Positions 851 to 61,417 of a stretch of 64,000 bases of DNA are shown here, one piece after another (positions within the stretch are counted from its first letter, which is position 1; the number at the start of each line of letters is the position of its first letter). The stretch lies in the NCBI GenBank assembly GCA_012840965.1, contig DUVQ01000097.1, positions 5,045 to 69,044 of the forward strand. The letters run 5' to 3'. This stretch comes from Oligoflexales bacterium. Lineage in GTDB: Bacteria; Myxococcota_A; UBA9042; DTJE01. The position numbers and the translations under genes are program-made. The notes below the pieces were generated by a model, which was not told where the DNA came from, ran no database searches, and saw nothing but the letters and a program-made list of their open reading frames with translations.

Positions 851-860
851 TTTTGTTGCC

Positions 861-4008: not shown

Positions 4009-4072
4009 GGCCAAAAAGCCCCCAAGCACAGGGTGATGGAGTATAGCACCGTTGAAGTACGTGGAGAATTCT

Positions 4073-4134: not shown

Positions 4135-4135
4135 G

Positions 4136-4497: not shown

Positions 4498-4584
4498 TAA
4501 GGGACAGCGCCTGGGCTTGCATCTGTAAACCATCAAGCGTAAGTTAGTCCGTACAGCCCGTTTTACTGACAACTTGGGGGTGCT

Positions 4585-5934: not shown

Positions 5935-5939
5935 TTGCC

Positions 5940-5964
5940 ACAAAAACCACCGCTTTGTGGCGTG
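5940..5964. terminator. candidate bidirectional hairpin between convergent genes
   Basis: gccacaaa-aaccaccgc-tttgtggc. 8-bp perfect stem, 9-nt loop. Lies between the lipoprotein stop (5934) and the proS stop (5968). No T-tract. Confidence 0.3.
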
Positions 5965-5967
5965 CGC

Positions 5968-7476: not shown

Positions 7477-7509
7477 TTGGGAAACTCCTGATTCAAAAAG
7501 GGATTATTC

Positions 7510-8778: not shown

Positions 8779-8869
8779 TTGAACCTCCTCTATTTGACCA
8801 CGGCAACCGCTCAATATAGACTTCGGCGTCCTTTCAGGGGCGGTCCTTCAGGACGCGTGATGCTATTTT

Positions 8870-9439: not shown

Positions 9440-9477
9440 AAAAGATGAACTTTTATCAGGTGCGTCGGAGTCAGGAG

Positions 9478-10101: not shown

Positions 10102-10104
10102 TAG

Positions 10105-11091: not shown

Positions 11092-11191
11092 GGCAGCGGC
11101 AGGGCCAGGGACAGGGGGCAGGGACAGGGGCGGGGACAGGGCCTGGGACAGGGGGCAGGGACAGGGGCGGGGACAGGGCCAGGGGCGGGGA
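11075..11191. repeat. (GGGRCA)n hexanucleotide array overlapping the stop of the upstream CDS
   Basis: gggcagcggcagggccagggacagggggcagggacaggggcggggacagggcc..., about 19 units. Confidence 0.85.
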
Positions 11192-11192
11192 C

Positions 11193-12239: not shown

Positions 12240-12678
12240 AACACCCCTCTGTTACTGCACACAATGATCCATGTTTATATGCAGAAAAGCAAGAGAAAGA
12301 GGGTAATATATGCATATTATTTTGCAAAAATTATGCAAATAAATTCTAGCTAGGCGAGGTTTCAGGGCCCGCCGTGGGTATGCGAACCACTGACCTCGCC
12401 GCTCACATTCGAACAATTAGTCTCCAAACGATCACTGTACAATGAGTTTATTGGCAGGTGATCTGTAGGCACTCCATCCGCCAATGTCACATGGTCGAAT
12501 GCTACGGACGGACCACCAATAAGTCCCGGCAGGCAGATTTCTGGTGGCTTGAGTAACTCCGTTTTGAGGCTCAATTATCGCCACGCAATCCTGTAGGTTG
12601 GACGTTTTACATATGGCGAGGGCATATCGACCCGCAAGATACACAGGCCCCCAGCTGAACGTTATGTTGCCAGGTGAT

Positions 12679-18933: not shown

Positions 18934-18960
18934 GGGATTCTCCATCAACGAAGTGGTCGG

Positions 18961-30938: not shown

Positions 30939-31478
30939 ATGACAGAAACAGCCACGATTGTTAAACGCCTGACTGCCAACAAAGTGCTAGTTCAGATTAC
31001 CCGGGGCGCAGCATGCGACACCTGCCATGCCAAAGGGGCATGTGCACCGCTGTCACGTGGGTCCATTGTGACCTTTGAAGCCGAAGACCCATTAAACTGT
31101 GAGCCAGGTGATTTGGTAGAAGTGGCAATCGCAGAAGGTGCCGTATTAAAAGCCGTTGGCTGGGTTTATGGCCTTCCCATCGCACTTGCTCTAATACTCA
31201 GCCTTGCCATTTGGAATTGGATGCCGGACCCGGAGGGCAGGGATCTGATGGCAGCAGGCGGCTTCATCGCAGGAGCGGGCCTGGGCATGCTGGCCCTGCG
31301 GCTGGTTGAGAGAGCGATCAAGGAAAAGTCCACTTTCTCGGTGAAGGTGGTTGGGAGGGGGCAGGGTCAGGGACAGGAGCATGGACAGGGACAAGAGCAG
31401 GGACAGGAGCAGGGACAGGAGCAGGGGCAGGGACAGGGGCAGGGGCAGGAGCAGGGACAGGAGCAGGGACAGGGGTAG
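30939..31478 (+). CDS. rseC: RseC/MucC family (SoxR-reducing system) protein with repeat-encoded (GQGQEQ)n tail
   Basis: [10 protein letters not shown] motif followed by two TM helices. The last ~40 codons run into the hexamer array, so the true C-terminus is uncertain. Confidence 0.55.
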
Positions 31479-31634
31479 GGACGGGGGCAGGGGCAGGGAC
31501 AGGGACGGGGACAGGGACAGGAGCAGGTTCAGGGGCAGGGTCAGGGACAGGAGCAGGGACAGGAGCAGGGACAGGAGCAGGGACAGGGACAGGGACAGGG
31601 ACAGGAGCAGGGACAGGGACAGGATCAGGTGGGG
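31353..31634. repeat. longest (GGGRCA)n array, ~47 hexamers
   Basis: gggcagggtcagggacaggagcatggacagggacaagagcagggacaggagc.... All three + frames give GQ/RD/DR-rich translations and minus frames give LS/PL-rich ones. Confidence 0.9.
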
Positions 31635-31642: not shown

Positions 31643-32128
31643 TTAGGCCTTGGCTACCCACTTGCGGATGAACGCGGCTTGGCGGGCTACTTCCTCTTCA
31701 GTTTTTTCCAGCCCAATCTTTTCAGCCTTGCTTCCAACCAAGGGGATTTTAACTTCAAGCTGGCTGATGAAAACCACGCGAGTTTTGTCGCCCTGGGCGT
31801 GAAATTCCACTGAACCAGATAAAAAGAATTTGTCGGCCATGATTTCAGGGGTGACTTTCCAAGTCATTACACCCTTTTCTCGATCCAGCACGTTGTCGTC
31901 GTCATAAACATCGGTCTCGTTCTTGCGCAAAAATGCCGGAACCCTAGAAGGCTCCTTGATCCTAGCCTTCATACGAAGCTTCCCACCAGGCAGCTCCTCT
32001 CTTTCAAGGATTTTAACGTCGATAGCCCCGGAATTTTTCGATTTCTCGATATAAAACTCCTCACTGGCATAAGCATCCAGAACCGTGGCCAAAGGCGCAT
32101 CAATAATGTGTTCGTAGGTAACCTTCAT
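31643..32128 (-). CDS. DUF2505-like SRPBCC superfamily protein
   Basis: Start moved to [26 protein letters not shown], with GGAGGAGA directly upstream. The ORF track start at 32239 lies inside a hexamer repeat. 162 aa. Confidence 0.5.
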
Positions 32129-32182
32129 TGTCTCCTCCAAAAAGACCGCCCCAATTCTGCCGCGCCTTGGAGCTAAAGTAAA

Positions 32183-32222
32183 GGGACAGGAACAGGGGAC
32201 GGGGGCAGGGACAGGGTCAGGT
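32183..32222. repeat. (GGGRCA)n array
   Basis: gggacaggaacaggggacgggggcagggacagggtcagg. Confidence 0.8.
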
Positions 32223-33788
32223 AGGATCCTCAATGCCACTGTGAGGTAGCACCGCTTTGGCCAAAGCCCTCAAGGCCTTCCAGCCAATTGAAGGTTTGTC
32301 ACTTGCCTTCGCCAAATACGGCTCGACCAAGTGATCCCCAGCATAAAACACGAAATAGGTAAAAGAACCATAAGGGGTAAACCCCATTTTCGCCGTTCGT
32401 AACACAAACGTCGCAAAATCAGTAAACCAACTCAACCTCTCTCGTTGAATCTGCCACCACACAAACTGCGTCCCAAACGCAATATGAGTCATCAAAACGA
32501 ATGCTTTAACCTGCCACGGCTTCAGATGCTCATGCTCCATTGAAATCCCATGAAGCAAGTCAGAAGCCTCCTCAAGCGCCTCAGGGCGTATCGAAGAACC
32601 AAGCTCTGCAGCCTTATCAAGCACCTCACTATCCGCCAGCGGCTTGTAAAGGAAAAAAACCGGGAAATCCACTGAAAAATCGTGCGCAAGTTCCAAAGAT
32701 TGAACAAGCCACTCCGGCCTCTCACCAGGCCCACCAGCCATAAAGTAGCCAGTAATCGAAATCCCAGACTCCTTCATCAACCTCAGCCCTTCCTCAAGGC
32801 GCTCTTGGCTGATACCCTTGTTGTAGATTTTGTTCCTCTGCCAGTCGTTCGCAGCCTCAATACCCACCCGCAGGTTTACACAACCACTTTCCCTAAGAAG
32901 AGCCAGATTCTCAGCAGTTACATGATCCGGCCTTGTAAAAGCGCTGTAAGGCAGCTTTTTGTGCAGCCCAACCCGGATGTATTCCGCCGCAAATTTTTCC
33001 ACCCATTTCCTGTTGATCAAAAAGTTCAAATCAGTGAACTGGATAGTTCGCAACCCCATGGATTTATAGCGATCATAGTCGGCCTGAATTTCCTCGACAA
33101 CCTTGATCGGATCCCGATATCGCAGATAGCGCTCGCCAGGATAACGCTTTTGGATCTCGGTCATTGAACAAAACGAGCACTTGGCAGGACATCCACGGCT
33201 GGCAGTTACAGGCAAAATCCCCCATATGTAAAAATTCGCCTCCAGGATATCACGGTCAAAGACGCTCCAATCAACCGCCACCATCTCGCAAGGTGGCAAA
33301 AGCTTAGCCTTTGGGGTTGGCTGGACGATTTTATCACCATCGCGGCGCCATAAACCAGGGACCGAATCTACCGATTCACCAGCCGCTAGGGCGTTTAGCA
33401 GGGCAAGCATCGGAATCTCGCCATCCCCCTCAAGCGCCCAATCAAAGGCAGGGCAACCAAGTACATCCTCAGTGGCCAAAGTCGCGTGATGCCCACCTCC
33501 AACCAGTGGGACCTGAACATGGCGTTTGATTTCCACTGCAACATCCTTGGCCGCAGGAAAATATGGAGTCGAAAGGTACATCGCTACAAGATCCGGTTTG
33601 TATTCTTGAAGCGTCTTTTTTAGCTTTCGTTTCCATCCCCTTGTCGGAGTAGCCATGAAATCAAGGATTTTAACCTCATGGTCGCTGTGATGACGCACCC
33701 ACGAACCCACCATGGCAATCCCCATATGCACATGTTCCTTTTTCATGACAATGTTTGGGTTAACCAAAAGCAGGCGAAGCTTGCGCAT
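32217..33788 (-). CDS. B12-binding domain-containing radical SAM protein
   Basis: N-terminus MRKLRLLLVNPN plus B12-binding fold. CxxxCxxC = CPAKCSFC. 523 aa with a hydrophobic C-terminal extension. Confidence 0.75.
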   Translation of the reverse strand: MRKLRLLLVNPNIVMKKEHVHMGIAMVGSWVRHHSDHEVKILDFMATPTRGWKRKLKKTLQEYKPDLVAMYLSTPYFPAAKDVAVEIKRHVQVPLVGGGHHATLATEDVLGCPAFDWALEGDGEIPMLALLNALAAGESVDSVPGLWRRDGDKIVQPTPKAKLLPPCEMVAVDWSVFDRDILEANFYIWGILPVTASRGCPAKCSFCSMTEIQKRYPGERYLRYRDPIKVVEEIQADYDRYKSMGLRTIQFTDLNFLINRKWVEKFAAEYIRVGLHKKLPYSAFTRPDHVTAENLALLRESGCVNLRVGIEAANDWQRNKIYNKGISQERLEEGLRLMKESGISITGYFMAGGPGERPEWLVQSLELAHDFSVDFPVFFLYKPLADSEVLDKAAELGSSIRPEALEEASDLLHGISMEHEHLKPWQVKAFVLMTHIAFGTQFVWWQIQRERLSWFTDFATFVLRTAKMGFTPYGSFTYFVFYAGDHLVEPYLAKASDKPSIGWKALRALAKAVLPHSGIEDPT

Positions 33789-33892
33789 CAGGGCTCCTTC
33801 CGGGTCCAGCCAAAAGGCTCATCGCAATAAGTTACTCTCTTTTGTCCGGAATGTCGCCTGTGACATTTAAAATCACCAGCCAATCAGCACGT

Positions 33893-33907
33893 TGCTGATA
33901 ATTTTGC
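33893..33907. promoter_or_regulatory. perfect 6-3-6 palindrome TCAGCACGTTGCTGA in divergent promoter region
   Basis: Lies in the AT-rich 250-bp spacer between the two divergent radical SAM genes. Three direct repeats CCAGARATGRCGACC follow at 33962..34031. Confidence 0.3.
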
Positions 33908-34039
33908 CTTCCTTTTGTGACGCTTGGGCTGTAAATACTTCGATTGGCGACATTAACAAATGCCAGAGATGGCGACCTTATCAAAATCCAGAAATGACGA
34001 CCTCATAAAAAGGCCAGAGATGCTAGAATTTCACCCGCT

Positions 34040-35404
34040 ATGCGTGTGCAACTTGTAAATCCACCGCCGTTCAGAATAAATGATCAATACGACGCACCAG
34101 ATTTTCCCCAATTGGGGCTAGCCACTTTGGCTGGGTACCTGATAACCAAAGGTGTGACGGACATATCTGTGATTGATGCGAAGTTTGAGAGGCTTGATTA
34201 TGATGCGATTTTAAGACGTTTGGCTGCTTACAAGCCTGATATCATTGGCATTACAGCAATGACAAACGAAGTCATTCAGGCCGCCAAAGTAGCCAGTCTT
34301 ATCAAGGAAAGATTTCCGCAGATCACCACTGTAATCGGTGGGATACACGTTTCTGTCCTGCCGGAACAAACATTAAAGGAGTTTCCAAGCTTTGATATTG
34401 GCATAGTTGGACAGGGGGAAATCAGCCTTCACCAGTTGATTAAGGCCCTTGAGCAAGGTGGCGATCTGCAGGCTGTTAAAGGAATCGTTTACAGGTCTGA
34501 TAACCAGATTCTGCAAAATGCACCACGCTTTGAAGCGGTTGACCTTGATTTTACACCTGCTTGGCACCTGTTTCCAAAGGCCAAAACCTATATGATTTCC
34601 AGCCAGCGCGGATGTCCTTTTAATTGTCCGTTTTGTGTAAACCCCAATGGACACCGGTTAAACAAACGTTCGATCCAAAGTGTGATTGATGAGATGACCA
34701 TGTTGGCTGATGATTTTGGTGCTGCCAAAGTTGTTTTTGCAGACGAAGTTTTCAGCCTGGATCGCAAACGGACCATTGAGCTTTGCCAGGCGATGATTGG
34801 GGCTGGGCTTGCAAAGAAATTGACCTGGAAGGCTTCCACCCATGTCAATTCTGTAGATGTAGAAGTGTTTAAATTTATGAAGGATTCTGGCTGCTATCTA
34901 ATAGAGCTAGGGATCGAAAGTGGAGATCCAGATATCCTAAAAGTTATGCACAAGGGCGTGACCATTGAAAAGATTCTAAAGGTCAGACAGGATGCCAAGG
35001 CCGCTGGTATACCCTTTGGTGCGCTATTTATCTTGGGCCATCCAAACGAGACGCTGCACACTGCCTGGCGGACTTTGAATCTGGCGGTGCGCCTTAATTC
35101 TGACCTGACCATTTTGGGAATCATGGTGCCTTTTCCGGGTACCAGAATTGGGGAAATGGCAAAATGTGGCGAAGGTGGTTATCGTTTGATTGCAAAGGAT
35201 TGGAATGATTATGGAAAACAGCACGGGCATGCTGTTGAAATGCAAACTCTGAGCAGGCGTCAGCTCGAGTTATTGCAAGGGGTTGGGTACATCAGAGTGC
35301 TGCTTGAAAACGGGCGAATCGTCGACTTGGCTAAGTTTATTTGGCAGTTTAGGCGAGAGGCCATGGCGCTAGGTAAACGCCTGTTGAGCGTTGACCGAAG
35401 TTAG
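34040..35404 (+). CDS. B12-binding domain-containing radical SAM protein
   Basis: N-terminus MRVQLVNPPP plus B12-binding fold. CPFNCPFC. 454 aa. Confidence 0.75.
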   Translation: MRVQLVNPPPFRINDQYDAPDFPQLGLATLAGYLITKGVTDISVIDAKFERLDYDAILRRLAAYKPDIIGITAMTNEVIQAAKVASLIKERFPQITTVIGGIHVSVLPEQTLKEFPSFDIGIVGQGEISLHQLIKALEQGGDLQAVKGIVYRSDNQILQNAPRFEAVDLDFTPAWHLFPKAKTYMISSQRGCPFNCPFCVNPNGHRLNKRSIQSVIDEMTMLADDFGAAKVVFADEVFSLDRKRTIELCQAMIGAGLAKKLTWKASTHVNSVDVEVFKFMKDSGCYLIELGIESGDPDILKVMHKGVTIEKILKVRQDAKAAGIPFGALFILGHPNETLHTAWRTLNLAVRLNSDLTILGIMVPFPGTRIGEMAKCGEGGYRLIAKDWNDYGKQHGHAVEMQTLSRRQLELLQGVGYIRVLLENGRIVDLAKFIWQFRREAMALGKRLLSVDRS

Positions 35405-35470
35405 TTGGTGATATTGACAGCAAAGGTCCTGTTGCCTATCCTGCTTTTCCGAAAGGATGTGGGGGAGCCC

Positions 35471-36451
35471 ATGATAAGAACTGTAGTATTGTTGGCACTT
35501 GTGTTGACGTTTGCCGCTTGTAAAAAGGAACAGGAGCCTACCCCTGAACCGGTGGTTGAGCAGGTGGAGGTTGTTAGACCCGAGGAGCAGGACCCTGACC
35601 GCCGTGGCAGGCGTAGGGCTGCAAGAGCCCAAGAGCAGGCTGCACAGGAGCAGGCTGCGCAGGAACAGGCTGCACAAGAGCAGGCTGCACAGGAACAGGC
35701 TGCGCAGGAGCAGGCTGCGCAAGAGCAAGCCCAGGCGGAACAAGCTGGTTCGCAGGCCGAGCAGGCAGCAGCGCAGGTTGGTGACGAACCTGACCCAGTG
35801 AATCCTGCGACAGCTGACCAACCAGACCAGCAGGCCGCAGCACAGGCAGGTGAACAGGTTCCGGAACAACCCCAGGAGCAAGCCCCAGCGCAGGCCCAGG
35901 AGCAAGCCCAGCAGCAAGCTCCCGGTCCACAGATCGCTCAAGCTCCAGTGCAGGCAGGACCAGATGGAAGTCAGCCTGTTGCGCAAGCTGGCAGGCCAAG
36001 CTTAAGGCAGCCCGAGGCAGGAGCGCCGGCTCTGCCAGACTTAAGGCTTTTGCTAACTATCAATGATATCAAGGAGCTGGCCTCATCCAAGGTTAATCTT
36101 CGTAGGGTCCCTTTGGTTGGTATCGAACCTTCCCCCAAGGTCGACTCCATCATGTACGCTCCTGTTAAAGGCAACAAATATGGTGTCGGGCTTCAGGTCT
36201 TTAGGGAGGATAGTGCCGTTTTTACAAGGGATCGCTTTAACTCAATGTTGGCCTCCTATCCTTCTGCCGTTGAGATTGCTGCCATTGCTGGTCGTACGTT
36301 CTTTGCGTATCGAGACGATCTTTTGTATATCGGCTTTATTTTGCCGGCTAAAAATCTGGTTTTTGTGCTGTCCTGTAGCCGCTCAATCTGTAACTCCGAC
36401 AGTTTGTATGAATTGGCCAAAAAGGTAAGCTCAAGATCGAATAACCTGTAA
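35471..36451 (+). CDS. hypothetical lipoprotein with (EQAAQ)7 low-complexity region
   Basis: Start at MIRTVVLLALVLTFAAC|KKEQ. 15-bp tandem repeat gagcaggctgcacag at 35628..35732. The C-terminal ~120 aa are non-repetitive. Confidence 0.45.
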   Translation: MIRTVVLLALVLTFAACKKEQEPTPEPVVEQVEVVRPEEQDPDRRGRRRAARAQEQAAQEQAAQEQAAQEQAAQEQAAQEQAAQEQAQAEQAGSQAEQAAAQVGDEPDPVNPATADQPDQQAAAQAGEQVPEQPQEQAPAQAQEQAQQQAPGPQIAQAPVQAGPDGSQPVAQAGRPSLRQPEAGAPALPDLRLLLTINDIKELASSKVNLRRVPLVGIEPSPKVDSIMYAPVKGNKYGVGLQVFREDSAVFTRDRFNSMLASYPSAVEIAAIAGRTFFAYRDDLLYIGFILPAKNLVFVLSCSRSICNSDSLYELAKKVSSRSNNL

Positions 36452-36514
36452 ACAAAACCTGATTTTGGGGATTTTGGGACCGAAAATTGGTTTGCAGGCC
36501 ATCAGGCTTTAATC

Positions 36515-37708
36515 ATGAAACTTTTGAACAAGTGGGCTAACCAGTCAATTATTTTGGTTCTTGGTACAGGTGGGGTCGGTAAAACGACGGTCTCCGCGGT
36601 TTTGGGCGGCCTTTTGGCGGCTTCAGGACGGCGAGTGCTGGTTGTTACAGTTGACCCATCCAACAGGCTTAAAGATGCTTTGGGCCTATCTGGTAAGTCT
36701 GGGGTCGAGGAGCCTGTTCCCGTTGAGGCCTTTGGCGGGGCGGACTCGACCGGTTCCTTGTCCGCCATGATTCTTGACACCAAGACAGAGTTGGACCGCT
36801 TGGCTGTTTTAATGATGCCTGATGAAAAGGCTAGGGCCGCTATAACTGACCATGTTTTTTACCAAAAGGCCGCGGCCAAGATGGCTGGGACCCACGAATA
36901 CATGAGCATGATCAGGCTGCTTGAGGCTTTGGACTCCGGTTTATACGATGTGATAGTGCTGGATACGCCGCCAAAAGAGCACGCGCTTGCCTTTTTAGAT
37001 GCCCCCGCGAAATTGGATGCCTTGCTTAATGCGGACATCTTCAAGGCCTTTGTGTCCGCTTCTTCTGGCCTGTCGCGTCTTGGGATGGGTGCCATGCGTT
37101 GGCGCAATGTGATTCTTAAGGGGATAGGTCGTTTTGCCGGCGAGGAAAATTTCCTTGCAGTGCTGGATTTTGTGCTGGCCTTTACTCCTTTGTTTGACGA
37201 CATCCGTAAACAGGCCGCCAAATTTGAACAGTATCTAAAGGGTGGCCAGGCTTCGACTGTATTTGTTACGCGGCCGGAGCTTCAGTCTGTTTCTCCTACA
37301 AAAGACGCCTTTAAGTCGCTGGAGCAACGTGGGATCAAGCCTGATGCCTTGATTGTAAACAGGGTGCGTACGTGGCCACCACACGGTTGTCCTAGCGAAG
37401 GCTGTCACCCCATAGATGGCGAACAGTTAAAGGACACCTTGGCCAATAGCGGGATTTTGGAACTTGCAGATGTCAGTAACAGGGATCGCCTGGCAAATGC
37501 GATCCAGAAAATAGCCGAAGCCTATAGAGCGGTGTCTGTCGAAGATGCCAGAGTTATTGAAGAATTGACAGAGGCCGCCTTTCCAGCAGCCACCGTGACC
37601 CTGCCTCTGTTGCAAGACGACGTCAAGGACCTTCAATCGTTAGGTGGGTTTGCAAAGGTCGTGCGTGACAGGCTAGGGCAGTTTGAGCCACCCCTGGGCC
37701 CCTCCTAG
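36515..37708 (+). CDS. ArsA/GET3-family P-loop ATPase
   Basis: GTGGVGKTT Walker A plus DPSNRL (DPAxNL-like) signature. 397 aa, single ATPase domain. Confidence 0.7.
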   Translation: MKLLNKWANQSIILVLGTGGVGKTTVSAVLGGLLAASGRRVLVVTVDPSNRLKDALGLSGKSGVEEPVPVEAFGGADSTGSLSAMILDTKTELDRLAVLMMPDEKARAAITDHVFYQKAAAKMAGTHEYMSMIRLLEALDSGLYDVIVLDTPPKEHALAFLDAPAKLDALLNADIFKAFVSASSGLSRLGMGAMRWRNVILKGIGRFAGEENFLAVLDFVLAFTPLFDDIRKQAAKFEQYLKGGQASTVFVTRPELQSVSPTKDAFKSLEQRGIKPDALIVNRVRTWPPHGCPSEGCHPIDGEQLKDTLANSGILELADVSNRDRLANAIQKIAEAYRAVSVEDARVIEELTEAAFPAATVTLPLLQDDVKDLQSLGGFAKVVRDRLGQFEPPLGPS

Positions 37709-40278
37709 AACTCGGCTTTAAGCCCCAGAATTGGCAGTATCAGTGATGCCCCTACAAAACCCATCTTGCTGTAGTCGTAGCTGTACAGCACCCCTTCAGC
37801 ATTATTACGGAAATAAACGTTCTGGATTTCAAGATAAAGGCCAAGCTTCCATTGATTAAATACCCATTCTTTGTCGACTCTTAGGTCAAGCTGATGAAAC
37901 AAGGGCAAGCGCTTGGAGTTGATGGTCGCGTTGGGGATGGCCACATAGCGGTCCAAGTCGGCATCATAGACGGACCCATCTGCAGGGGTGTACGGATTTC
38001 CACTTGCCAGGCGGAATCTTAAGCCAATCGACCAGTGTCGTGGCAGCTCGTAGCTTGCCAAGATGTTTAGCAGGTGGTTTTGCTCAAAGTCGGATGATCG
38101 ATAGGCCTTGCTCTTGAAATCCCAGATCTGGGAAACAGTGTAAGTATATGCAATCCAACCAAAAAGCTTTCCTCCAGCAATCTTTGAACCTGGCACCAAG
38201 CGAAGCAGGAAGTCAGCACCAAAGGCCCTGCCAAACCCCTTGTTGTTATAGCGTTCGGTGCGGTCATCCGAGAATTCAACGCGATTAAACAGCCACTTGT
38301 AAAAGCCGTTGACCGACAGCGTCAGGCCGTCGATTGGCGTGTATTCAGCGCCTCCCAACAGGTGGGCGGCTGCCTCTGGCCCAAGGTCAGGATTTCCAAA
38401 GTCCGGGATGTAGGCATAGATAGGCGGTGGCTGTCGATAAAGTCCGCCTGCGAGTTTTAATGCCAGCTTGTCTTTTAGCACCTCAAATCTGTTTGAAAGC
38501 CTTGGATCGATGGACCAACTTTGCCATGTCCCAACAAACACATCTGCTCGAACTGATGGAACTATCGTCCACCAAGGAGTCGCGTCCCAGGTAACCGACA
38601 TGAAGGGGCCAATCTGGCCCATATAGAACTCGCCTTTGGTGTGTAAAACAGCCCTTGAGGAAAGCGGGACTCCAACCATTCCAGGGCGGTCCATATTTGG
38701 CGAGGTAATGTCATATCTTTGAACATCCAATCGAAGATCTAGGCCAGTGTTCATCTTTACCTTTTGGTGGGCCTGCCAGTTGAATTCCTCACGAATCGCA
38801 ACTGGAATGGTTTTAAGCTCGGCGGTAATCTGTTTAAAAACATCGACTTCCACCCCCATATAACCTAGCTGTAGTGACAGCAAGTTTGTAATCGCCGCAG
38901 ACTGCTGGCGCTTCCACTGGAGCAAGAAGTTGTGGCCAAACAACGACATACCTAGGTTGCCAGCAAATTTGGGTTCATGCCCTTCAGCTTTTTTGTTAAT
39001 CAGCGCCACAGCGTCATCAGTTCCATTGATGAAAATCATGAAACGGTCACGTTCACCAAGGCGATGTTGCCATTTCAACTGGTAGTCGTAGTATCTTGGT
39101 GCGGTCGTCAGTTGCCGGTCTTCCCCAAAGTCGATCAGCTTCAAGATCCCGTCAATATAGGAGCGGCGAAAGGCCACCTGGATGTCCCCATCCTTCGAAT
39201 ACGGGCCTCCAATCATCACACCGGCGTGAATCATGTTGATGTCAACCGCTCCATGAATCCCGGTCAGCGGCTCTTCCTTTAAGGTGACGTTTACAATCCC
39301 AGCTGTTGCCCTGCCATAGGAGGCGTCAAAACCGGCTGGGACAAAGTCGATTTTTTGAATGAAATCAGGGTGTATCACTGAATATAGTCCGCCAAAGTGA
39401 TACAACAGCACAAAAGGCTGCTGATTTAAGAGCACCTGGGAGTCAAACGGCGGACTGCCAAAAACCACCAGATAGCCGGCCCCAAGCGCAGAGCGGCCAA
39501 TTCCAGGCAGGTTTTCCACCATCTTTAAAACATCGCCGCCTGACCCTGGAAGCCTTCGCAATTCACCGGCCTCAAGCGTTTGGCGGGCCACAAACCTGGC
39601 CTCTTTTGGTGCCCTGATGATGGTCTGGTTGGAGGATTCAAACTGACGTTCCAAGTAGATCGTGCCTTCACCTATCTTGTCTGGTTCCACGGTGAATTCT
39701 TTGCGGATTTCGCGGTACTCACCCTCTGGGATGTAAAGGGTGTATAGGCCTGGATTCACATCCGCAACTTCCATGACGCCATCAAAGGCAGTGACTGAAA
39801 CGCCGTTTTCTTCCAAGATTCCAGAGATGCCATCCACGGGTTCTCTGACGGCTTTCAGAAGTACCTTGAATCTATAGACAATCTGGCGTTCCTTTTGCGA
39901 GATATCAAAGGTATATCGATAGGTTACCTGGACTGCAACTGGTTCCTGGTCCATCGTGGCGGGTTTGAATGAAAAGCCTTTGACCGCTTCCAGTGCAAGG
40001 TCGTTTAAAGCTTCGGCATCCGAGCCTGTTACCTCTGCGTCGCTGACTACGCCTGCCTCATCAATGGTGATCATCAAGGTGACTACATAGGAGCCAGGTT
40101 CCAGCGCCAGGTCTGGAGGCAGTTTTGCCTGGACAAACTCCAAAAGCTCGGGCGGTGTAATGACTGGTTCTTGGTTTTGGGGCGGCTCCTGCTGGGCGAT
40201 TGGGTCTTGCGAAAACGCGGCCACAGGCGTCACTAGCAGGATGAATATGGCGAATTTGCTAAAAAAGTGCCTGTTCAT
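37705..40278 (-). CDS. TonB-dependent receptor-like outer-membrane protein with N-terminal TonB-C-like and CarboxypepD_reg-like domains
   Basis: Signal peptide. Residues ~40-125 resemble the TonB C-terminal domain. Plug-like region GGDVLKMVENLPGIG. Long beta-barrel ending in aromatic F. Confidence 0.65.
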   Translation of the reverse strand: MNRHFFSKFAIFILLVTPVAAFSQDPIAQQEPPQNQEPVITPPELLEFVQAKLPPDLALEPGSYVVTLMITIDEAGVVSDAEVTGSDAEALNDLALEAVKGFSFKPATMDQEPVAVQVTYRYTFDISQKERQIVYRFKVLLKAVREPVDGISGILEENGVSVTAFDGVMEVADVNPGLYTLYIPEGEYREIRKEFTVEPDKIGEGTIYLERQFESSNQTIIRAPKEARFVARQTLEAGELRRLPGSGGDVLKMVENLPGIGRSALGAGYLVVFGSPPFDSQVLLNQQPFVLLYHFGGLYSVIHPDFIQKIDFVPAGFDASYGRATAGIVNVTLKEEPLTGIHGAVDINMIHAGVMIGGPYSKDGDIQVAFRRSYIDGILKLIDFGEDRQLTTAPRYYDYQLKWQHRLGERDRFMIFINGTDDAVALINKKAEGHEPKFAGNLGMSLFGHNFLLQWKRQQSAAITNLLSLQLGYMGVEVDVFKQITAELKTIPVAIREEFNWQAHQKVKMNTGLDLRLDVQRYDITSPNMDRPGMVGVPLSSRAVLHTKGEFYMGQIGPFMSVTWDATPWWTIVPSVRADVFVGTWQSWSIDPRLSNRFEVLKDKLALKLAGGLYRQPPPIYAYIPDFGNPDLGPEAAAHLLGGAEYTPIDGLTLSVNGFYKWLFNRVEFSDDRTERYNNKGFGRAFGADFLLRLVPGSKIAGGKLFGWIAYTYTVSQIWDFKSKAYRSSDFEQNHLLNILASYELPRHWSIGLRFRLASGNPYTPADGSVYDADLDRYVAIPNATINSKRLPLFHQLDLRVDKEWVFNQWKLGLYLEIQNVYFRNNAEGVLYSYDYSKMGFVGASLILPILGLKAEF

Positions 40279-41375
40279 GGTAGCTCTCCTGCGTCTCGAA
40301 CTACCGCGTAATTGGGGCCAGCAACATCACAAACAGGGTCGATTAGCGGCACGACGGGAAACGTGACGAAAGCGACTCCAAGCTTGTCATCCCTGGCAAA
40401 CACCCACATCGTTGTTTGTTTTGGCATGGCCTCCAATTCCCAGGCCGTCCATTCATTTGATATCTCCAAGGCGCCGTCTTCACCAATCGAGGCCATGCTG
40501 GTTTTGATGCTTCGAAATCTTCCAGAAGTGGCCACCCACGAGAAAAACACAAACTCCTCGTCGCCACCTGCATCTGGGTTGAATTCGATGGCATCATCAA
40601 AAAGCCGCGGCTCCAGTTTGATTCTTTTACCTGGGCAAACAGCCAAAGTGTTTGAAACGGCCTCGGTCGAAGCTACGGTTTGGCCATCATATAAAACCTC
40701 GAAGCCCGGGTTTTTGTTTGGGACGCGACCTTCTTTGGGCGCTCTGAACGCCACCCGTTTATAGCCTTCGCGTTTTAGCTCTTGTCCGTCTATTTCCACC
40801 GTGATGGTCACGTGGAACATCAATTCAAGTCCCTTTTCCAGCAGGCAGACCTTAAACATGGCAAAGGCGTCGTCCTGGCATGTCTTTAGCTGGGCTGCTT
40901 CATATTGACTGCACTTGTCCCAAGCGGCCAAGGCGCTGTTATTACACTCGTCGTCTTGTTCAATGGTTCCCCTAATGAATTCCATGTATTCAGCGGCGCT
41001 GTCCGCAAGAAAATCAATCATCGTAGACAGGACTTGGCCGTCAAAGGTGGCAGTTCGAGCCTCAAAATCGGTGTCCAAAACAGGTATTTCAGGCACAGCA
41101 CAGGCAAAGGTGGCCTCTGCCCCAAGTGACATTGGGCATACTGCCCACTCCAAGTCTTTCAGGGCCGTTTGTTGGAGATTTCCCGTTTCATCTGGGCCTG
41201 GCATGGCAACCACGACATGCAGCGTTACAGAGCCTGGGTTTTCTTGGGTAAACGGCACTTCTGGAGGATTTGCAACGATTCCAAGAATGCGAGGCTTGTC
41301 CACAAAGCTGGAGGGGCTGAATTCAGGGGCGCAGGCGGCAACAAAGAGTACTGCAATCAAAGCGATTCGCCACAT
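40275..41375 (-). CDS. hypothetical lipoprotein
   Basis: Lipobox LFVAAC|APEF. 366 aa. Sits between tonB and the receptor. Confidence 0.5.
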   Translation of the reverse strand: MWRIALIAVLFVAACAPEFSPSSFVDKPRILGIVANPPEVPFTQENPGSVTLHVVVAMPGPDETGNLQQTALKDLEWAVCPMSLGAEATFACAVPEIPVLDTDFEARTATFDGQVLSTMIDFLADSAAEYMEFIRGTIEQDDECNNSALAAWDKCSQYEAAQLKTCQDDAFAMFKVCLLEKGLELMFHVTITVEIDGQELKREGYKRVAFRAPKEGRVPNKNPGFEVLYDGQTVASTEAVSNTLAVCPGKRIKLEPRLFDDAIEFNPDAGGDEEFVFFSWVATSGRFRSIKTSMASIGEDGALEISNEWTAWELEAMPKQTTMWVFARDDKLGVAFVTFPVVPLIDPVCDVAGPNYAVVRDAGELP

Positions 41376-41390
41376 GATAAACCTCGCGTC

Positions 41391-42227
41391 CTAGGAGCCC
41401 TGTGGCAAGAACACCACAGTCCACTTTACTTTATATGCAATTGGCTGTCCGTTTCTGGTAGCTGGCGAAAATCTTAGGCCTTCTACAGCTCGTTTGGCCT
41501 CGACGTTAAAGGCCTCAAGGTCCCCCTTTGTAACTTCAGCCTTTGCAACTTTGCCATCGGCATCAACGTGAAGCTGCAAGGTCACCCTGACTACTCGCCC
41601 CAACTCCCTGTGTTCATTTGGATAAACCCCTTGGACCTGATTTTGAGCCTTTGGTGGGACAATAACCACTTTTTCCGGGGCCTTTTGTTCGGCGGTTGCT
41701 TCTGGTTGCGAGACCCTGGGAGCATCAGGACCATCTCGTTTGAAACCCCTTGCATCTACAGATGGATCGCCAAAAAGGTTCGTTTGTTCGCCAGTTTGAA
41801 CTGCCACGCCGCCATTAAGAGCCACGTTGGACAGGACCAACGGTGCTGGCTTTTTGGGCTCAGTTGGCTTTGCCTCTGGTTCAGGTTTTTTGGCCTCAGG
41901 TTCGGCGGCAGGTTTGGGCGGTTTTGGTTGTGAAGCTGGCTTGCTTTGAGGCTGCTTTGGAGGCTTTTTTGCTGGGGCCGGGGCAGGGGCAGGTTCAGGG
42001 ACAGGGGCAGGTTCAGGGACGGGTTCAGGTTCAGGGACAGGGGCGGGTGGCTTGGCCAGTAGCTCCGCGATTTGCTGTTTTCTGACTTCAATTGGAACCG
42101 GGGCAACTTTTCGGGCTGGCTTTGTGGGCGCTTCAAGTTGACGTCGTGGTGTAAATTCAATGACTGCCACGTGCAGCAGCAGTGATACAACCACAAATAT
42201 CGCCAGTTGTTTGTTGCGATCCATCAA
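41391..42227 (-). CDS. tonB: energy transducer TonB
   Basis: N-terminal TM. Pro-rich spacer PAPVPEPEPVPEPAPVPEPAPAPAP, encoded by the same hexamer motif as the intergenic arrays. C-terminal TonB-C domain. Confidence 0.75.
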   Translation of the reverse strand: MMDRNKQLAIFVVVSLLLHVAVIEFTPRRQLEAPTKPARKVAPVPIEVRKQQIAELLAKPPAPVPEPEPVPEPAPVPEPAPAPAPAKKPPKQPQSKPASQPKPPKPAAEPEAKKPEPEAKPTEPKKPAPLVLSNVALNGGVAVQTGEQTNLFGDPSVDARGFKRDGPDAPRVSQPEATAEQKAPEKVVIVPPKAQNQVQGVYPNEHRELGRVVRVTLQLHVDADGKVAKAEVTKGDLEAFNVEAKRAVEGLRFSPATRNGQPIAYKVKWTVVFLPQGS

Positions 42228-42257
42228 TTTACCAACTGCTTTACAGCCCTTTTCAAG

Positions 42258-42725
42258 CTAGGGTTCAATCCCTGGAATCGATTGTTCTTCAACGTTTAAA
42301 GCCACGTTGCCTACGCCTCTTAACTTCACGAAATCAATGACTCTTGTAACCTTACCATAGGCCAAATCCTTATCGGCCGACAGCACTGCATCAGGGACTC
42401 TGCCTCCTGCCTCATTCGCCCTGCGGTCGATGTAAGCCCCGATTTTTTCAAGGGTAGTTGGTTCTCCGTTTAGATACAGGGCGCCTGCCTGGTCTAAAAT
42501 CAGGTTTAAAGGCACATCCTTTGGCTCTGGTGGTGCCCCCGAGTGTGCCTTTGGTAGGGTAAGTGCAATTTCTCGCAGGTTTTTTTCCTGTTGCATGAAT
42601 ATGTTGGCTGTGACCATAAAGATGATCAGCAGGACCAGGAATATGTCGACCAATGGAGTGACGTTGATGCTGGATATCAAGTCATCTTCAGGTTCATTTC
42701 TCTTCGCAGCCATCTTCTCCTCCAT
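42258..42725 (-). CDS. exbD: biopolymer transporter ExbD/TolR
   Basis: INVTPLVDIFLVLLIIFMV signature. 155 aa. Confidence 0.8.
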   Translation of the reverse strand: MEEKMAAKRNEPEDDLISSINVTPLVDIFLVLLIIFMVTANIFMQQEKNLREIALTLPKAHSGAPPEPKDVPLNLILDQAGALYLNGEPTTLEKIGAYIDRRANEAGGRVPDAVLSADKDLAYGKVTRVIDFVKLRGVGNVALNVEEQSIPGIEP

Positions 42726-43323
42726 AGGCGCAGCGCATGCGGTGGGTGCTTATCTCCCTGGCCTGCTCGACTGCGGCGTTAACTCGTTTGCGAAACACGT
42801 TGTAAAACATGACGGCTGGAAGGGCGACCACAAGTCCAATTGCGGTTGCAATCAAGGCCTCTGAGATGCTTTGCATCAAAAGGGCGTTTTTTTCAGTATT
42901 TTCAGCTATGTCTGATAGTCTAAAAAACGCGGCCATGATCCCGATGACGGTTCCAAGCAATCCTATGAAGGGGGCGTTGTTGCCGAGGGTGGCCAGGAAT
43001 GTGAGGCCTTGTTCATAGCGGTTTTTTTGCTTTCGTAGCTCTGATTCGACTGCATTTTCGGCGTCTTCACGGCCGACACCTGCTTCATGGACCTCGACAA
43101 TAAGCTTAGCTACGAGGTTTTCCATGCAGTCTTGACAGACTTTGGCTGGTTTTCCATGGGCCAGGGCATGGACGGCGTCTGGCCTGACTCGTCGTCTGGC
43201 ATAGAAGATCCAACGTTCGATAATGACGGCAATAGACGCCACCGAGAGGCCGACTAGGAGCCACAGGATCCAGTCAACGCCGATTCCGATGAAGAAGTCT
43301 TGTAAGAGGCCTGCAAAGTTCAC
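42694..43323 (-). CDS. exbB: MotA/TolQ/ExbB proton channel
   Basis: 209 aa, 3 TM. NAPFIGLLGTVIGIM motif. Confidence 0.8.
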   Translation of the reverse strand: MNFAGLLQDFFIGIGVDWILWLLVGLSVASIAVIIERWIFYARRRVRPDAVHALAHGKPAKVCQDCMENLVAKLIVEVHEAGVGREDAENAVESELRKQKNRYEQGLTFLATLGNNAPFIGLLGTVIGIMAAFFRLSDIAENTEKNALLMQSISEALIATAIGLVVALPAVMFYNVFRKRVNAAVEQAREISTHRMRCAYGGEDGCEEK

Positions 43324-49082: not shown

Positions 49083-49130
49083 AGGGACAGGGTCAGGGAC
49101 AGGGCCAGGCGTAGGATCAGGGCAGGGACC
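49083..49130. repeat. (GGGRCA)n array
   Basis: gggacagggtcagggacagggccaggcgtaggatcagggcagggacc. Confidence 0.8.
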
Positions 49131-52929: not shown

Positions 52930-53033
52930 AGCAACCCTCCAGGCAACCGGCATCTATTCCAGAAACCACCGCCTCACAAACGAAAAATCAAGGGGTTAGC
53001 AGGTTCAGGCTAGCATCAGCATGGATCCACGTC

Positions 53034-53075
53034 AAGGGCAGGGCCGGGGAGAGGGATAGGAGCCGGGGACAGGAC
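53034..53075. repeat. (GGGRCA)n-related G-rich array
   Basis: gggcagggccggggagagggataggagccggggacagg. Confidence 0.6.
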
Positions 53076-53084
53076 CCCAAGGTA

Positions 53085-57227: not shown

Positions 57228-57485
57228 ACAACCCCTCCAAGTCATCGACACGCTAGTCACGTGGAAAAACCACAAAGACCAAACCTATTGCGACCCTAGT
57301 GCGCACGCTACTCCTGCCATAAATTCGTGTCAACAGAAAGATCTGACAAAAAAAACAGTGGCTTAAGTTGCCAAAGCCCGTGGTCGTTATTTACCCCCGC
57401 AATCGATAAACGGTCCCCAAACAATCTGGTGGTACGAGTACCGAGGAAGGATAAACAAAAGCGGAGGGGGTACGGTGGGGGCTGA

Positions 57486-61379: not shown

Positions 61380-61417
61380 GTAAACCCTCCATGCAGTTAG
61401 GCATAGGGCAAAAGCAA

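Follow-up and report, generated by a model that had tools for sequence, protein, structure and literature searches.

Of the described systems that resemble the locus analysed here, the anaerobic Mg-protoporphyrin IX monomethyl ester cyclase BchE (TIGR02026) is the top NCBIfam match of both its radical SAM enzymes, rSAM-A and rSAM-B; BchE shares their architecture, with a B12-binding domain at the N-terminus ahead of a radical SAM core, and automatic pipelines usually annotate their homologues as BchE. The second-best NCBIfam match of rSAM-A is the ladderane-associated ‘lipid biosynthesis B12-binding/radical SAM protein’ (TIGR04072). According to a review, the proposed ladderane cassette comprises an ACP, a phytoene-dehydrogenase-like enzyme and a B12-rSAM, and the cassette's own chemistry is still unproven (PMC13459092). 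This cassette, which also includes FabF/FabZ, is echoed in relatives of our pair that adjoin either a CrtI-family enzyme and an SDR, or an ACP. Likewise, the HpnI-HpnK-HpnJ route to bacteriohopanetetrol cyclitol ether finds a parallel in distant rSAM-A clusters, where a GT2, a YdjC/PIG-L deacetylase and an HpnJ-like B12-rSAM are encoded in a row.

In terms of structure, TsrM, TokK, CysS, OxsB and QCMT/MgmA have a common fold, consisting of a Rossmann B12 domain, a partial TIM barrel and a C-terminal domain. The substrates of these class-B enzymes are tryptophan, carbapenem/pantetheinyl intermediates, a nucleoside and protein Gln, and methyl transfer from methylcobalamin is the commonest class-B outcome. 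The archaeal lipid-tailoring B12-rSAMs (GrsA/GrsB, Gmm, the GDGT methylases and Ted), which act on inert lipid chains and often occur as several paralogues per cluster, are comparable in the mode of action proposed here for the pair. Finally, BagB (Rv3680), from the Get3-like BagAB pair of M. tuberculosis, aligns over its full length with an ATPase encoded next to the pair, and both P-loops are devoid of the signature lysine (GTGGVGKTT in the ATPase vs. GAGGVGKTT in BagB).

Results and Discussion

The window, that is, the entire 64-kb stretch of DNA analysed, belongs to an uncultured Myxococcota bacterium from an anaerobic digester. A check of its open reading frames returned all five genes listed in an earlier note on this DNA at identical positions (Table 1), and their make-up matches the description in it: a divergent B12-rSAM pair together with genes for a DUF2505 protein, a lipoprotein rich in repeats and an ATPase of the ArsA superfamily. 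Profile searches with Pfam and NCBIfam revealed no hpn, bch or RiPP-type genes in the window, in agreement with the claim that this neighbourhood is unlike the known contexts of those kinds.

Table 1. Coordinates of genes and non-coding features within the window.
Feature	Position	Strand	Basis
DUF2505 protein, 161 aa, downstream of rSAM-A	31643..32128	-	Pfam
Short GGGACA-type hexamer array, gap between rSAM-A and DUF2505	32182..32221	.	
rSAM-A, class B cobalamin-binding radical SAM enzyme, 523 aa	32217..33788	-	Pfam, AF2, Foldseek
Divergent spacer, 251 bp, presumably with both promoters	33789..34039	.	
Inverted repeat, 7 bp, 3-nt centre, ATCAGCA-CGT-TGCTGAT (ATCAGCACGTTGCTGAT)	33883..33899	.	
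Tandem repeat, period 25, 3.1 copies, its end 18 bp upstream of the rSAM-B start codon	33945..34022	.	
rSAM-B, cobalamin-binding radical SAM enzyme, 454 aa, CPFNCPFC	34040..35404	+	Pfam, NCBIfam, homologue searches
Lipoprotein, lipobox Cys, EQAAQ repeats, 138-aa orphan C-terminal domain	35471..36451	+	
BagB (Rv3680)-like ATPase, ArsA/Get3 superfamily, 397 aa	36515..37708	+	

The two enzymes

Both enzymes carry a B12-binding and a Radical_SAM domain with Pfam scores above the respective cut-offs of 32.1 and 29.5 bits (51.9 and 76 bits for rSAM-A; 70.2 and 76.7 bits for rSAM-B), so that their description as two cobalamin-dependent rSAMs of the given lengths and cysteine motifs is borne out. In rSAM-A, the CxxxCxxC motif (CPAKCSFC) comprises C200, C204 and C207. 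Its AF2 model (pLDDT 91.3) confidently predicts a class-B fold: Foldseek matches include TsrM, AprD4, OxsB, CysS, QCMT and TokK, and comparison with TsrM, TokK, CysS, OxsB and QCMT/MgmA yielded E-values from 2e-19 to 1e-13 and TM-scores of 0.52–0.65. However, sequence identity to the latter enzymes is 13–20%, and nothing ties the pair to their pathways.

Neither enzyme reaches the curated NCBIfam cut-off of BchE, HpnJ, HpnR, the ladderane-type protein, BzaD, PhpK, QCMT or others, and all equivalog scores are far below threshold. Specifically, rSAM-A and rSAM-B score (i) 129 and 185 bits against a cut-off of 481 for BchE, with only 28–30% identity to annotated bchE genes over 73–81% of the length and no photosynthesis genes accompanying the pair, (ii) 108 and 140 bits against 360 for TIGR04072, with FabF and FabZ absent and hosts that are not anammox bacteria, and (iii) 80 and 165 bits against 577.6 for HpnJ, with neither an HpnI/K/J-like trio nor hopanoid genes in the window. 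The HpnJ-like neighbours in the distant clusters themselves score 235–243 bits against that HpnJ cut-off. The nearest sister groups of both enzymes are likewise without annotation. As judged from sequence comparisons, these results support the view that both enzymes fall outside every characterised clade covered by the tests.

The rSAM-A family, confined to metagenome-assembled genomes of Myxococcota, Binatia, Terriglobales and Thermodesulfobacteriota, is small, tight and well separated: the last full-length member in the match list is followed by a fall in score from 480 to 162 bits, clustering at 50% leaves one full-length representative plus short fragments, and the mean column identity of the family alignment is 61%, including the C-terminal domain with its invariant residues. 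This domain of ∼100 residues (∼420–523) is the ‘hydrophobic C-terminal extension’ of the earlier note. It is conserved, aromatic-rich, amphipathic and helical, and, since the maximum Kyte-Doolittle 19-residue mean at the C-terminus is only 1.12, it contains no transmembrane segment; hence, the extension is real, but consists of folded amphipathic helices. A C-terminal tail anchor was considered and is ruled out by this hydropathy, by the tight packing of the domain (pLDDT >90) and by the polar last residues.

The family of rSAM-B is also uncharacterised and much larger than that of rSAM-A, and the copy in the window belongs to an A-associated subclade. Homologues with 45–49% identity occur in unrelated contexts; some rSAM-B homologues adjoin a CDP-alcohol phosphatidyltransferase, and others PMT_2 and GT2.

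Genomic context of the pair

Co-location of rSAM-A and rSAM-B recurs across phyla. One rSAM-B subclade adjoins rSAM-A in ∼8 distinct arrangements, with identities from 85% down to ∼50%, which indicates that the pairing is real, yet not obligatory; for the two enzymes, the check for conservation of the neighbourhood thus found pairing in other lineages. Orthologues of rSAM-B (44–73% identity) are located at most ∼4 kb from rSAM-A in the window lineage, in relatives at 85% (L003) and 74% identity (L005/L009), and in L001, L025, L037 and L046, with a truncated fragment in L017 (listed with L025) and a fragment in L026. In a neighbour-joining tree of 130 leaves, computed without support values, all A-linked copies fall within one subclade of 33 leaves and stand-alone homologues lie outside. 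Depending on the locus, the two genes point away from or towards each other, or have other genes between them, and these differing orientations argue for a link beyond simple inherited synteny. In ∼12 loci with long flanks rSAM-B is not found beside rSAM-A, and in one MAG the two homologues reside on separate contigs.

Distant rSAM-A relatives are found in clusters rich in B12-rSAMs, which include UbiA, FPP/GGPP-synthase-like and fatty-acid-desaturase-like enzymes as well as the HpnI/K/J-like trio. Across rSAM-A loci, recurring partners are GT2 (n = 8), an epimerase (n = 6), a polytopic membrane protein of ∼545 residues (n = 6) and PIG-L (n = 3). An ACP is encoded directly downstream of one homologue, a CrtI-family enzyme and an SDR near the pair in the 74% relative, and an AMP-ligase in the neighbourhood of rSAM-A in the 85% relative. 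The presence of GT2, deacetylases, UbiA/prenyl synthase, the CrtI-like enzyme or ACP in the distant clusters points to a lipid-linked substrate. The contexts are heterogeneous: MiaB/RimO-like enzymes and HxsB/HxsD-like peptide-maturase genes occur as well, and a check of the genes adjoining rSAM-A homologues gave no Tes homologue. In the window, no lipid, isoprenoid or glycosyltransferase gene adjoins the pair, and the partner genes of the relatives have no homologue anywhere in the 64 kb.

Flanking genes

The other three genes are not part of what is conserved. The DUF2505 gene recurs only in the 85% relative and the lipoprotein and ATPase genes only in the 74% relative, there with genes for an SDR, a biotin carboxylase, a BCCP and a methylmalonyl-CoA mutase inserted; all three are absent from every more distant rSAM-A locus, which speaks against a five-gene module.

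For the DUF2505 protein (63.2 bits; cut-off 26.9 bits), the most probable start codon is the ATG at 32128, as in L003 (161 residues in both), with GGAGGAG as a candidate Shine-Dalgarno sequence just upstream; with this start there is no overlap with rSAM-A. Its L003 counterpart is 83% identical and separated from rSAM-A by two extra genes, and it is at their position that the window carries the hexamer array. A role as an accessory binding protein specific to this lineage is possible.

The lipoprotein, which most likely starts at 35471, is as described earlier, with a signal peptide plus Cys (MIRTVVLLALVLTFAAC) and a 15-bp DNA repeat of 6.3 copies encoding the low-complexity EQAAQ stretch. It has no match in Pfam or NCBIfam, and its homologues form only 5 clusters among 5.8 billion proteins. 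An AF2 model (pLDDT 88) yielded weak fold matches only (PknH sensor, TiME, Dip2269). In L005/L009, a 72% identical domain is encoded between the SDR and the biotin carboxylase. We regard the lipoprotein as a syntenic neighbour, with at most a putative tie to the enzymes, and not as a component.

The ATPase belongs to the ArsA superfamily (ArsA_ATPase, 106 bits in Pfam), as had been noted, but is BagB- rather than Get3-like, with an E-value of 2.7e-38 over the full length for PDB entry 6bs3_B compared with about 1e-14 for Get3. It differs from BagB in scoring 171 bits against the equivalog cut-off of 521 and in having no adjoining BagA-like partner gene. A 62% identical copy is encoded ∼5 kb from rSAM-B in L009 and none in the distant rSAM-A loci; the ATPase is thus a syntenic neighbour outside the conserved core.

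Function of the pair

Our favoured reading, albeit a tentative one, is that the core of the locus is a two-enzyme tailoring unit, in which rSAM-A and rSAM-B share one substrate, a small molecule that is lipid-linked and associated with the membrane. Both would be class-B enzymes using cobalamin plus [4Fe-4S]/SAM, and the substrate, less likely a peptide or cofactor, would be a lipid tail or a lipid- or polyprenyl-linked head group. In each enzyme, a 5'-deoxyadenosyl radical would abstract a hydrogen atom from an unactivated carbon, followed by transfer of a methyl group from methylcobalamin or by rearrangement, cyclisation or desaturation, and the aromatic-rich helical domain of rSAM-A may cap the active site and bind the hydrophobic part of the substrate.

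A peptide or protein substrate, as for RiPP-type or protein-directed B12-rSAMs such as PoyC, ApyD, Mmp10 and QCMT, is unlikely, although conceivable: QCMT is the best PDB sequence match of rSAM-A, SPASM or MiaB/RimO-like rSAMs adjoin some of its homologues, one of which has HxsB- and HxsD-like genes in its vicinity, and partial NCBIfam matches to ApyD and RiPP C-methyltransferases reach 79–152 bits. Those scores are, however, far below cut-off, neither a candidate precursor peptide nor a protease or exporter is seen in the window, the part of the spacer that holds small ORFs lacks conservation in L003, and the commonest recurring partners are glycosyltransferases, epimerases and lipid enzymes. 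It is rather improbable that the two enzymes are functionally unrelated and merely adjacent, as might be suspected from the very large rSAM-B family with its 45–49% identical homologues in unrelated contexts, and from the many loci with rSAM-A but without rSAM-B; the ∼8 arrangements, the single subclade of A-linked copies and the differing orientations all argue against it. Modification of a cofactor or pigment, be it a tetrapyrrole (BchE-like), the lower ligand of a cobamide (BzaD-like) or a prenylated quinone, appears quite improbable: BchE leads and BzaD features in the match lists of both enzymes, and some of the distant clusters encode UbiA, a prenyl synthase and a SAM-methyltransferase, but the BchE scores and identities given above are low, BzaD scores are 93 and 120 bits against 450, bch, cob and quinone genes are found neither in the window nor in any related locus, and Rfam reveals no cobalamin riboswitch.

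Very improbable, and already largely refuted by synteny, is a single module of all five genes, in which a GET3/ArsA-type ATPase inserts or chaperones rSAM-A via its hydrophobic C-terminus while the DUF2505 protein and the lipoprotein handle lipids. The genes for rSAM-B, lipoprotein and ATPase are co-directional with gaps of 63–66 bp, their order recurs in the 74% relative, and DUF2505 recurs in the 85% relative. On the other hand, in the 74% relative five unrelated genes intervene between rSAM-B and the ATPase, the three flanking genes are found in no distant locus, and the lipoprotein domain is a lineage-restricted orphan; moreover, the implication that a GET3 ATPase serves a tail-anchored enzyme is not supported, because rSAM-A ends in a packed amphipathic domain without a transmembrane tail and the ATPase is of the BagB type. 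Of the earlier proposal of a membrane-lipid or cofactor modification module, the location outside known clades, the A–B pairing and the contexts suggesting lipid-linked substrates are thus retained, whereas the five-gene module, the GET3/tail-anchor link and the reading of the repeats as a conserved regulatory array are not.

Intergenic spacer

The spacer had been described as AT-rich and about 250 bp long; it is divergent and 251 bp long, but only mildly AT-rich, since its GC content is 45.8% compared with 51.7% for the window. No sigma-70-like site was detected inside it, and Rfam gave no riboswitch match even at E ≤ 1. It can be aligned with L003 only at the ends near both start codons. The supposed perfect palindrome has perfect 7-bp arms around a 3-nt centre; it is kept in strains at 98–100% identity and absent in L003, and by our estimate, a single repeat of this kind in 251 bp does not clearly exceed chance expectation. 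The presence of three direct repeats is confirmed, with zero such arrays expected by chance in the window. A role as conserved regulatory array or operator was rejected, because copy number varies among strains (a 26-bp deletion in L033 leaves two copies) and the array is missing from L003; it is a tandem repeat in the leader of rSAM-B that differs among strains.

Gene organization of the locus

The five open reading frames that the earlier note had placed here are all present (table below). Two divergently transcribed genes encode the predicted cobalamin-dependent (class-B) radical SAM enzymes rSAM-A and rSAM-B and are separated by a spacer of 251 bp with 45.8% GC, as compared with 51.7% for the window; a DUF2505 gene is located downstream of rSAM-A, and the genes of a lipoprotein and an ArsA-superfamily ATPase are located downstream of rSAM-B. 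The locus is preceded by an Rnf operon and RseC, and followed by a TonB/ExbBD-type outer-membrane set. For the DUF2505 protein the tabulated start codon is almost certainly the true one, because GGAGGAG precedes it and the resulting protein of 161 residues matches the orthologue. Identical protein copies were deposited from Myxococcota MAGs (e.g., HHW96603.1, HHW96604.1 and HHW96606.1), and we infer that the host belongs to an uncultured, small-genome Myxococcota lineage with a probably anaerobic lifestyle. GGGACA hexamers form both a long microsatellite and a second, short array, the latter at the position where L003 (the locus of the 85% relative), which is devoid of such repeats, has genes for an AMP-ligase and a SPASM-type radical SAM enzyme; the short array may be a deletion or insertion scar.

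Positions of features in the window and in related loci
Sequence	Feature	Position	Strand	Size	Remarks
Window	rSAM-A	32217-33788	minus	523 aa	CPAKCSFC; Pfam B12-binding and Radical_SAM above cut-off
Window	rSAM-B	34040-35404	plus	454 aa	CPFNCPFC; Pfam B12-binding and Radical_SAM above cut-off
Window	DUF2505 gene	ATG at 32128		161 aa	Start almost certain
Window	Lipoprotein gene	35471-36451
Window	25-bp tandem repeat	33945-34022		three copies	Upstream of rSAM-B
Window	GGGACA microsatellite	31358-31623		~44 copies	RseC C-terminus (encoding GQGQEQ repeats) through intergenic region to DUF2505 stop
Window	Short GGGACA array	32182-32221			Between rSAM-A and DUF2505
Window	Carbamoyltransferase (NodU/CmcH type)	1852-4209			SxtJ-like segment at C-terminus
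Window	Protein with Dictyostelium-type CTDC repeats	12679-18948		2089 aa
Window	857-aa protein and following genes	37705-43323	minus
Window	Four tandem paralogous lipoproteins	49117-64000	minus	~1300 aa each
Window	One of these four	49117-52953	minus		Many EGF-like repeats, C-terminal FGE-sulfatase domain (Pfam scan)
L033	25-bp repeat	~9800-9830		two copies
L003	Contig with internal duplication	1-21572
L009	Mutase large subunit and ATPase	1780-4640
L001/L002	Large B12-rSAM cluster	1-17710
L027	Large B12-rSAM cluster	3367-17018

Family membership and fold of the two enzymes

Both enzymes exhibit the N-terminal B12-binding Rossmann domain followed by a CxxxCxxC radical SAM core that defines class B, and the cysteines of this motif are invariant across the alignment of the rSAM-A family. 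Neither reaches any curated NCBIfam cut-off. The best match is in both cases BchE (TIGR02026; 129.3 bits for rSAM-A and 185.4 bits for rSAM-B versus a cut-off of 481), and annotated bchE genes on plasmids share 28–30% identity with the enzymes. The scores are likewise low for HpnJ (TIGR03471; 79.9 and 165.1 versus 577.6 bits), HpnR (TIGR04367; 67.5 and 91.9 versus 650 bits) and the ladderane-type lipid B12-rSAM (TIGR04072; 107.8 and 139.6 versus 360 bits), and the window contains no hpn genes. The lists of NCBIfam matches for the two enzymes include no entry named HpnP. Both enzymes also score well under the curated cut-offs for BzaD, PhpK, QCMT (MJ_0865), RiPP C-methyltransferases, ApyD and AprD4. 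Tes (NF045702), a radical SAM enzyme without B12 domain, matches neither of them, and no radical SAM neighbour at the related loci exceeds 34 bits for Tes versus a cut-off of 450, providing no link to membrane-spanning lipids. The expectation that the pair falls outside the characterised clades is thus borne out for the BchE, HpnJ, HpnR, ladderane-type and Tes models. Among PDB sequences, rSAM-A is closest to QCMT (9ccb; E 1e-9) and rSAM-B to AprD4 (E 4e-28), and a literature search located no paper describing the rSAM-A family. Both proteins are uncharacterised members of a known enzyme class rather than representatives of a new type of system.

Modelled by AlphaFold from 35 members of its family (pLDDT 91.3), rSAM-A matches best the folds of TsrM, AprD4, OxsB, CysS, QCMT and TokK (TM 0.52–0.65; 13–20% identity), so that the predicted fold is confidently of the class-B radical SAM type. 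The rSAM-A profile retrieves 61,254 cluster representatives at E≤0.001; the family itself comprises ~85 clusters aligning over their full length at 42–99% identity (61% mean column identity), and is set off in the hit list by a sharp fall in score (480 to 162 bits). When the library is clustered at 50% identity, one full-length sequence along with short fragments stands for the whole family, and the next-best proteins (300–415 bits) are themselves without annotation. When genome contigs were scanned with the family alignment (a single-protein query had matched nothing), all matches came from MAGs, that is, from Myxococcota, Anaeromyxobacteraceae, Polyangiaceae, Binatia, Terriglobales and Thermodesulfobacteriota, and from one MAG labelled Undinarchaeales. 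The homologue in this last bin ('Candidatus Undinarchaeales archaeon'; L024, identical L042) shares 44% identity with rSAM-A, has GT2 and HpnJ-like neighbours on a 64-kb contig, and could reflect either horizontal transfer or a binning error.

The earlier note had described a hydrophobic C-terminal extension on one of the enzymes next to a GET3/ArsA-type ATPase, which could suggest a tail anchor. Residues ~420–523 of rSAM-A are modelled as a folded domain of four helices (424–450, 452–467, 472–482 and 501–513; pLDDT mostly >90), which are aromatic-rich and amphipathic, with a maximal 19-residue hydropathy of just 1.12 and polar residues at the very end. A tail anchor is ruled out by this hydropathy along with the confident model. 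The domain is kept throughout the family, with Q446, G469, F470, H486 and W503 being invariant, and probably constitutes a substrate cap typical of class-B enzymes and fit for a hydrophobic ligand, rather than a membrane anchor.

The spacer

Searching the spacer against Rfam yielded no cobalamin riboswitch or other RNA, either at gathering thresholds or at E≤1, and no sigma-70-like site was detected inside it. Its inverted repeat consists of 7+7 bp around 3 nt. The three direct repeats described in the earlier note are a statistically real array of a 25-bp unit, but the array is not conserved in the 85% relative, and the unit has no further copies in the window. Since the 98%-identical strain (L033) has exactly one copy fewer and the 85% relative has none, the array, which lies in the rSAM-B leader, behaves like a tandem repeat prone to slippage. 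Absence in L003, strain-variable copy number and the lack of other copies in the window rule out a conserved operator; any regulatory role would be at the strain level. A precursor peptide encoded in the spacer was likewise rejected, the small ORFs there being unconserved.

The flanking genes

Proteins of the Get3/ArsA type are recognized by a deviant Walker A motif, GKGGVGKT, with its signature lysine and by a score at cut-off. The ATPase encoded here has the P-loop GTGGVGKTT devoid of this lysine, scores 86.2 bits for Get3 (TIGR00345; cut-off 135) and 43.9 bits for ArsA (cut-off 650), and is matched by Get3 and ArsA structures at E about 1e-15 or weaker, so that its former assignment to this type cannot be upheld. 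Its best structural-sequence relative is Rv3680 from M. tuberculosis (BagB; 6bs3_B; E 2.7e-38), which aligns over the full length and likewise lacks the lysine. The score for BagB itself is 171.3 bits (NF053621; cut-off 521), and neither a BagA partner nor a second ATPase gene adjoins the gene; the protein is BagB-like, but not a BagB equivalog. At L009, one of the two loci (L005/L009) of the 74% relative, a BagB-like ATPase gene directly follows that of a methylmalonyl-CoA mutase large subunit (683 bits), a position usually taken by a MeaB-type G-protein chaperone. In both the window and L009, the ATPase gene is located downstream of genes for B12-dependent enzymes; to regard the ATPase as a cofactor chaperone would be pure speculation.

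The lipoprotein exhibits a signal peptide, its cysteine and a 15-bp repeat encoding EQAAQ. A search of 5.8 billion proteins yielded only five clusters of homologues for its 138-residue C-terminal domain. This domain has an SCxRxxC motif, both cysteines of which are invariant, and was modelled with a pLDDT of 88; the fold matches (mycobacterial PknH-sensor, TiME and Dip2269) were too weak for a functional assignment, which was dropped. The DUF2505 protein belongs to PF10698 (63.2 bits versus a gathering cut-off of 26.9; model positions 2–158 of 158), which we take to adopt the SRPBCC fold, as its Pfam clan implies, and it has no meaningful match among PDB sequences. The ATPase and the lipoprotein appear to be tied to the two enzymes through family-level synteny alone.

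Conservation of the neighbourhood and of the A-B pairing

What is conserved of the neighbourhood is the A-B pair, and not the five genes: the DUF2505, lipoprotein and ATPase genes are confined to the 85% or the 74% relative and are all absent from more distant loci. In L003 the divergent pair is kept, the AMP-ligase and SPASM-type radical SAM genes lie between rSAM-A and DUF2505, and the other flank is replaced by an IS91 element. A block comprising FAD_binding_4, PNTB, AlaDh_PNT_C and IS91 is duplicated at this locus, with one copy on each side of the rSAM/Rnf region, which suggests either that IS91 mediated a rearrangement or that the duplication is an artefact of assembly. The order in L005/L009 is a CrtI-family enzyme beyond rSAM-A, the divergent pair itself and then, beyond rSAM-B, an SDR, the lipoprotein homologue, biotin carboxylase, BCCP, the mutase large subunit and the BagB-like ATPase. 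When such partners of the relatives (AMP-ligase, SPASM rSAM, CrtI-like enzyme, SDR, biotin carboxylase, BCCP, mutase fragment, a ~545-residue membrane protein, ACP and MiaB-like enzyme) were sought in the 64-kb window, none was matched.

At L001, L025, L037 and L046, an orthologue of rSAM-B is located no more than a few kb from rSAM-A, in differing orientations, a shortened copy is found in L017, which is arranged like L025, and another fragment in L026. The rSAM-B family is far larger than that of rSAM-A (907 matches above threshold), and neighbour joining of 129 family members, with rSAM-A added as outgroup (130 sequences), groups all A-linked copies in a single 33-leaf clade, with stand-alone homologues from unrelated contexts located outside. 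However, rSAM-A is found without rSAM-B at ~12 loci with long flanks, and one MAG of the Anaeromyxobacteraceae has its rSAM-A and rSAM-B homologues on different contigs. Since the A-linked copies form one clade, yet rSAM-A also occurs without rSAM-B, the pairing is specific but not obligatory.

Gene contexts of distant relatives

Distant rSAM-A homologues are located in clusters with three to five B12-rSAMs, along with GT2 glycosyltransferases (8 loci), NAD-dependent epimerases (6 loci), PIG-L and YdjC deacetylases, HpnJ-like B12-rSAMs (235–243 bits), PMT_2, a sulfotransferase, a 2OG oxygenase, fatty-acid-desaturase-like proteins, and UbiA with an FPP/GGPP-synthase-like enzyme. A polytopic membrane protein of ~545 residues with about ten hydrophobic segments and no Pfam match recurs at six rSAM-A loci; our guess is that it is a GT-C enzyme. 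One rSAM-A homologue is directly followed by an acyl carrier protein gene. Homologues of rSAM-B adjoin either a CDP-alcohol phosphatidyltransferase, or PMT_2 with GT2 and sugar-nucleotide enzymes. The theme shared by these contexts is enzymes for lipid-linked or carrier-linked substrates. The rows of GT2, deacetylase and HpnJ-like genes near rSAM-A homologues resemble the HpnI/K/J route. The CrtI-like, SDR and ACP associations are reminiscent of the cassette proposed for ladderane synthesis (PMC13459092).

The largest clusters, with four to five B12-rSAMs (L001/L002, L027, L019 and L026), occur in MAGs of Binatia, Polyangiaceae and others from peat and soil and comprise GT2–YdjC/PIG-L–HpnJ-like rows, UbiA, FPP/GGPP-synthase-like and desaturase-like enzymes and the ~545-residue membrane protein. 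These clusters have the appearance of pathways, as yet unexplored, for lipid-linked glycans or cyclitols.

Possible function of the pair

B12-dependent radical SAM enzymes catalyse chemically hard reactions at unactivated carbons, and the majority of them are uncharacterised. For the present pair, the domain architecture, the fold, the position outside the named families and the A-B association are established. As to substrate class and chemistry, we tentatively infer, with somewhat less than even confidence, that rSAM-A and rSAM-B are consecutive tailoring enzymes acting by radical attack on an unactivated carbon of one membrane-associated, lipid-linked molecule. Both would employ the 5'-deoxyadenosyl radical, with cobalamin serving either as methyl carrier, methyl transfer being the commonest class-B outcome, or as participant in a non-methylating radical rearrangement.

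A peptide or protein as substrate is kept as a rival reading, so suggested by the MiaB/RimO-like enzyme, the HxsB/HxsD-like genes and the SPASM radical SAM enzymes near some rSAM-A homologues; it nonetheless appears unlikely, as the precursor search of the spacer retrieved unconserved small ORFs only. That the two genes adjoin by mere coincidence is rather improbable given the single clade of A-linked rSAM-B copies and the recurrence of the pairing at several loci, and a cofactor or pigment as substrate, which the best match to BchE might bring to mind, is similarly unlikely considering how far the BchE and BzaD scores remain under cut-off and that the spacer lacks a cobalamin riboswitch. Least probable is the five-gene GET3 module: rSAM-A has no tail anchor, the ATPase is BagB-like, and the flanking genes are absent from distant loci. 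The tempting story of a GET3-type ATPase targeting a tail-anchored radical SAM enzyme is thus dropped.

Beyond consecutive tailoring of a lipid-linked molecule, one may speculate, although this is doubtful, that the rSAM-A family and its dedicated rSAM-B subclade constitute an unrecognised cross-phylum, oxygen-independent lipid-tailoring pathway, which would C-methylate, cyclise or desaturate a membrane lipid or polyprenyl-linked sugar in uncultured Myxococcota, Binatia, Acidobacteriota and Thermodesulfobacteriota. If true, such a pathway could lie behind orphan biomarkers of soils, peats and digesters, namely bacterial lipids that are methylated or cyclised. Because orphan B12-rSAMs are very numerous, our finding is a reasonable lead rather than a surprise. 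It singles out a small conserved family, rSAM-A, and the subclade of the large rSAM-B family travelling with it, in uncultured bacteria of anaerobic digesters, soils and peat, whose relatives' clusters combine up to five B12-rSAMs with enzymes for isoprenoids or lipid-linked sugars. Should the pair act on a membrane lipid or lipid-linked glycan, its minimal two-gene version in the window would offer the simplest handle on the reaction; otherwise, the pair is one more orphan.

Other genes in the window

The 857-residue protein encoded beyond the locus exhibits a TonB_C-like domain near its N-terminus, where it weakly matches the myxochelin receptor MxcH, and faint TonB-dependent-receptor matches towards its C-terminus. 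It is followed by a 366-residue lipoprotein, a proline-rich TonB-like protein and two ORFs read as putative ExbD and ExbB. Among the four tandem lipoproteins at the end of the window, those other than the tabulated one share a similar Cys-rich N-terminal sequence.
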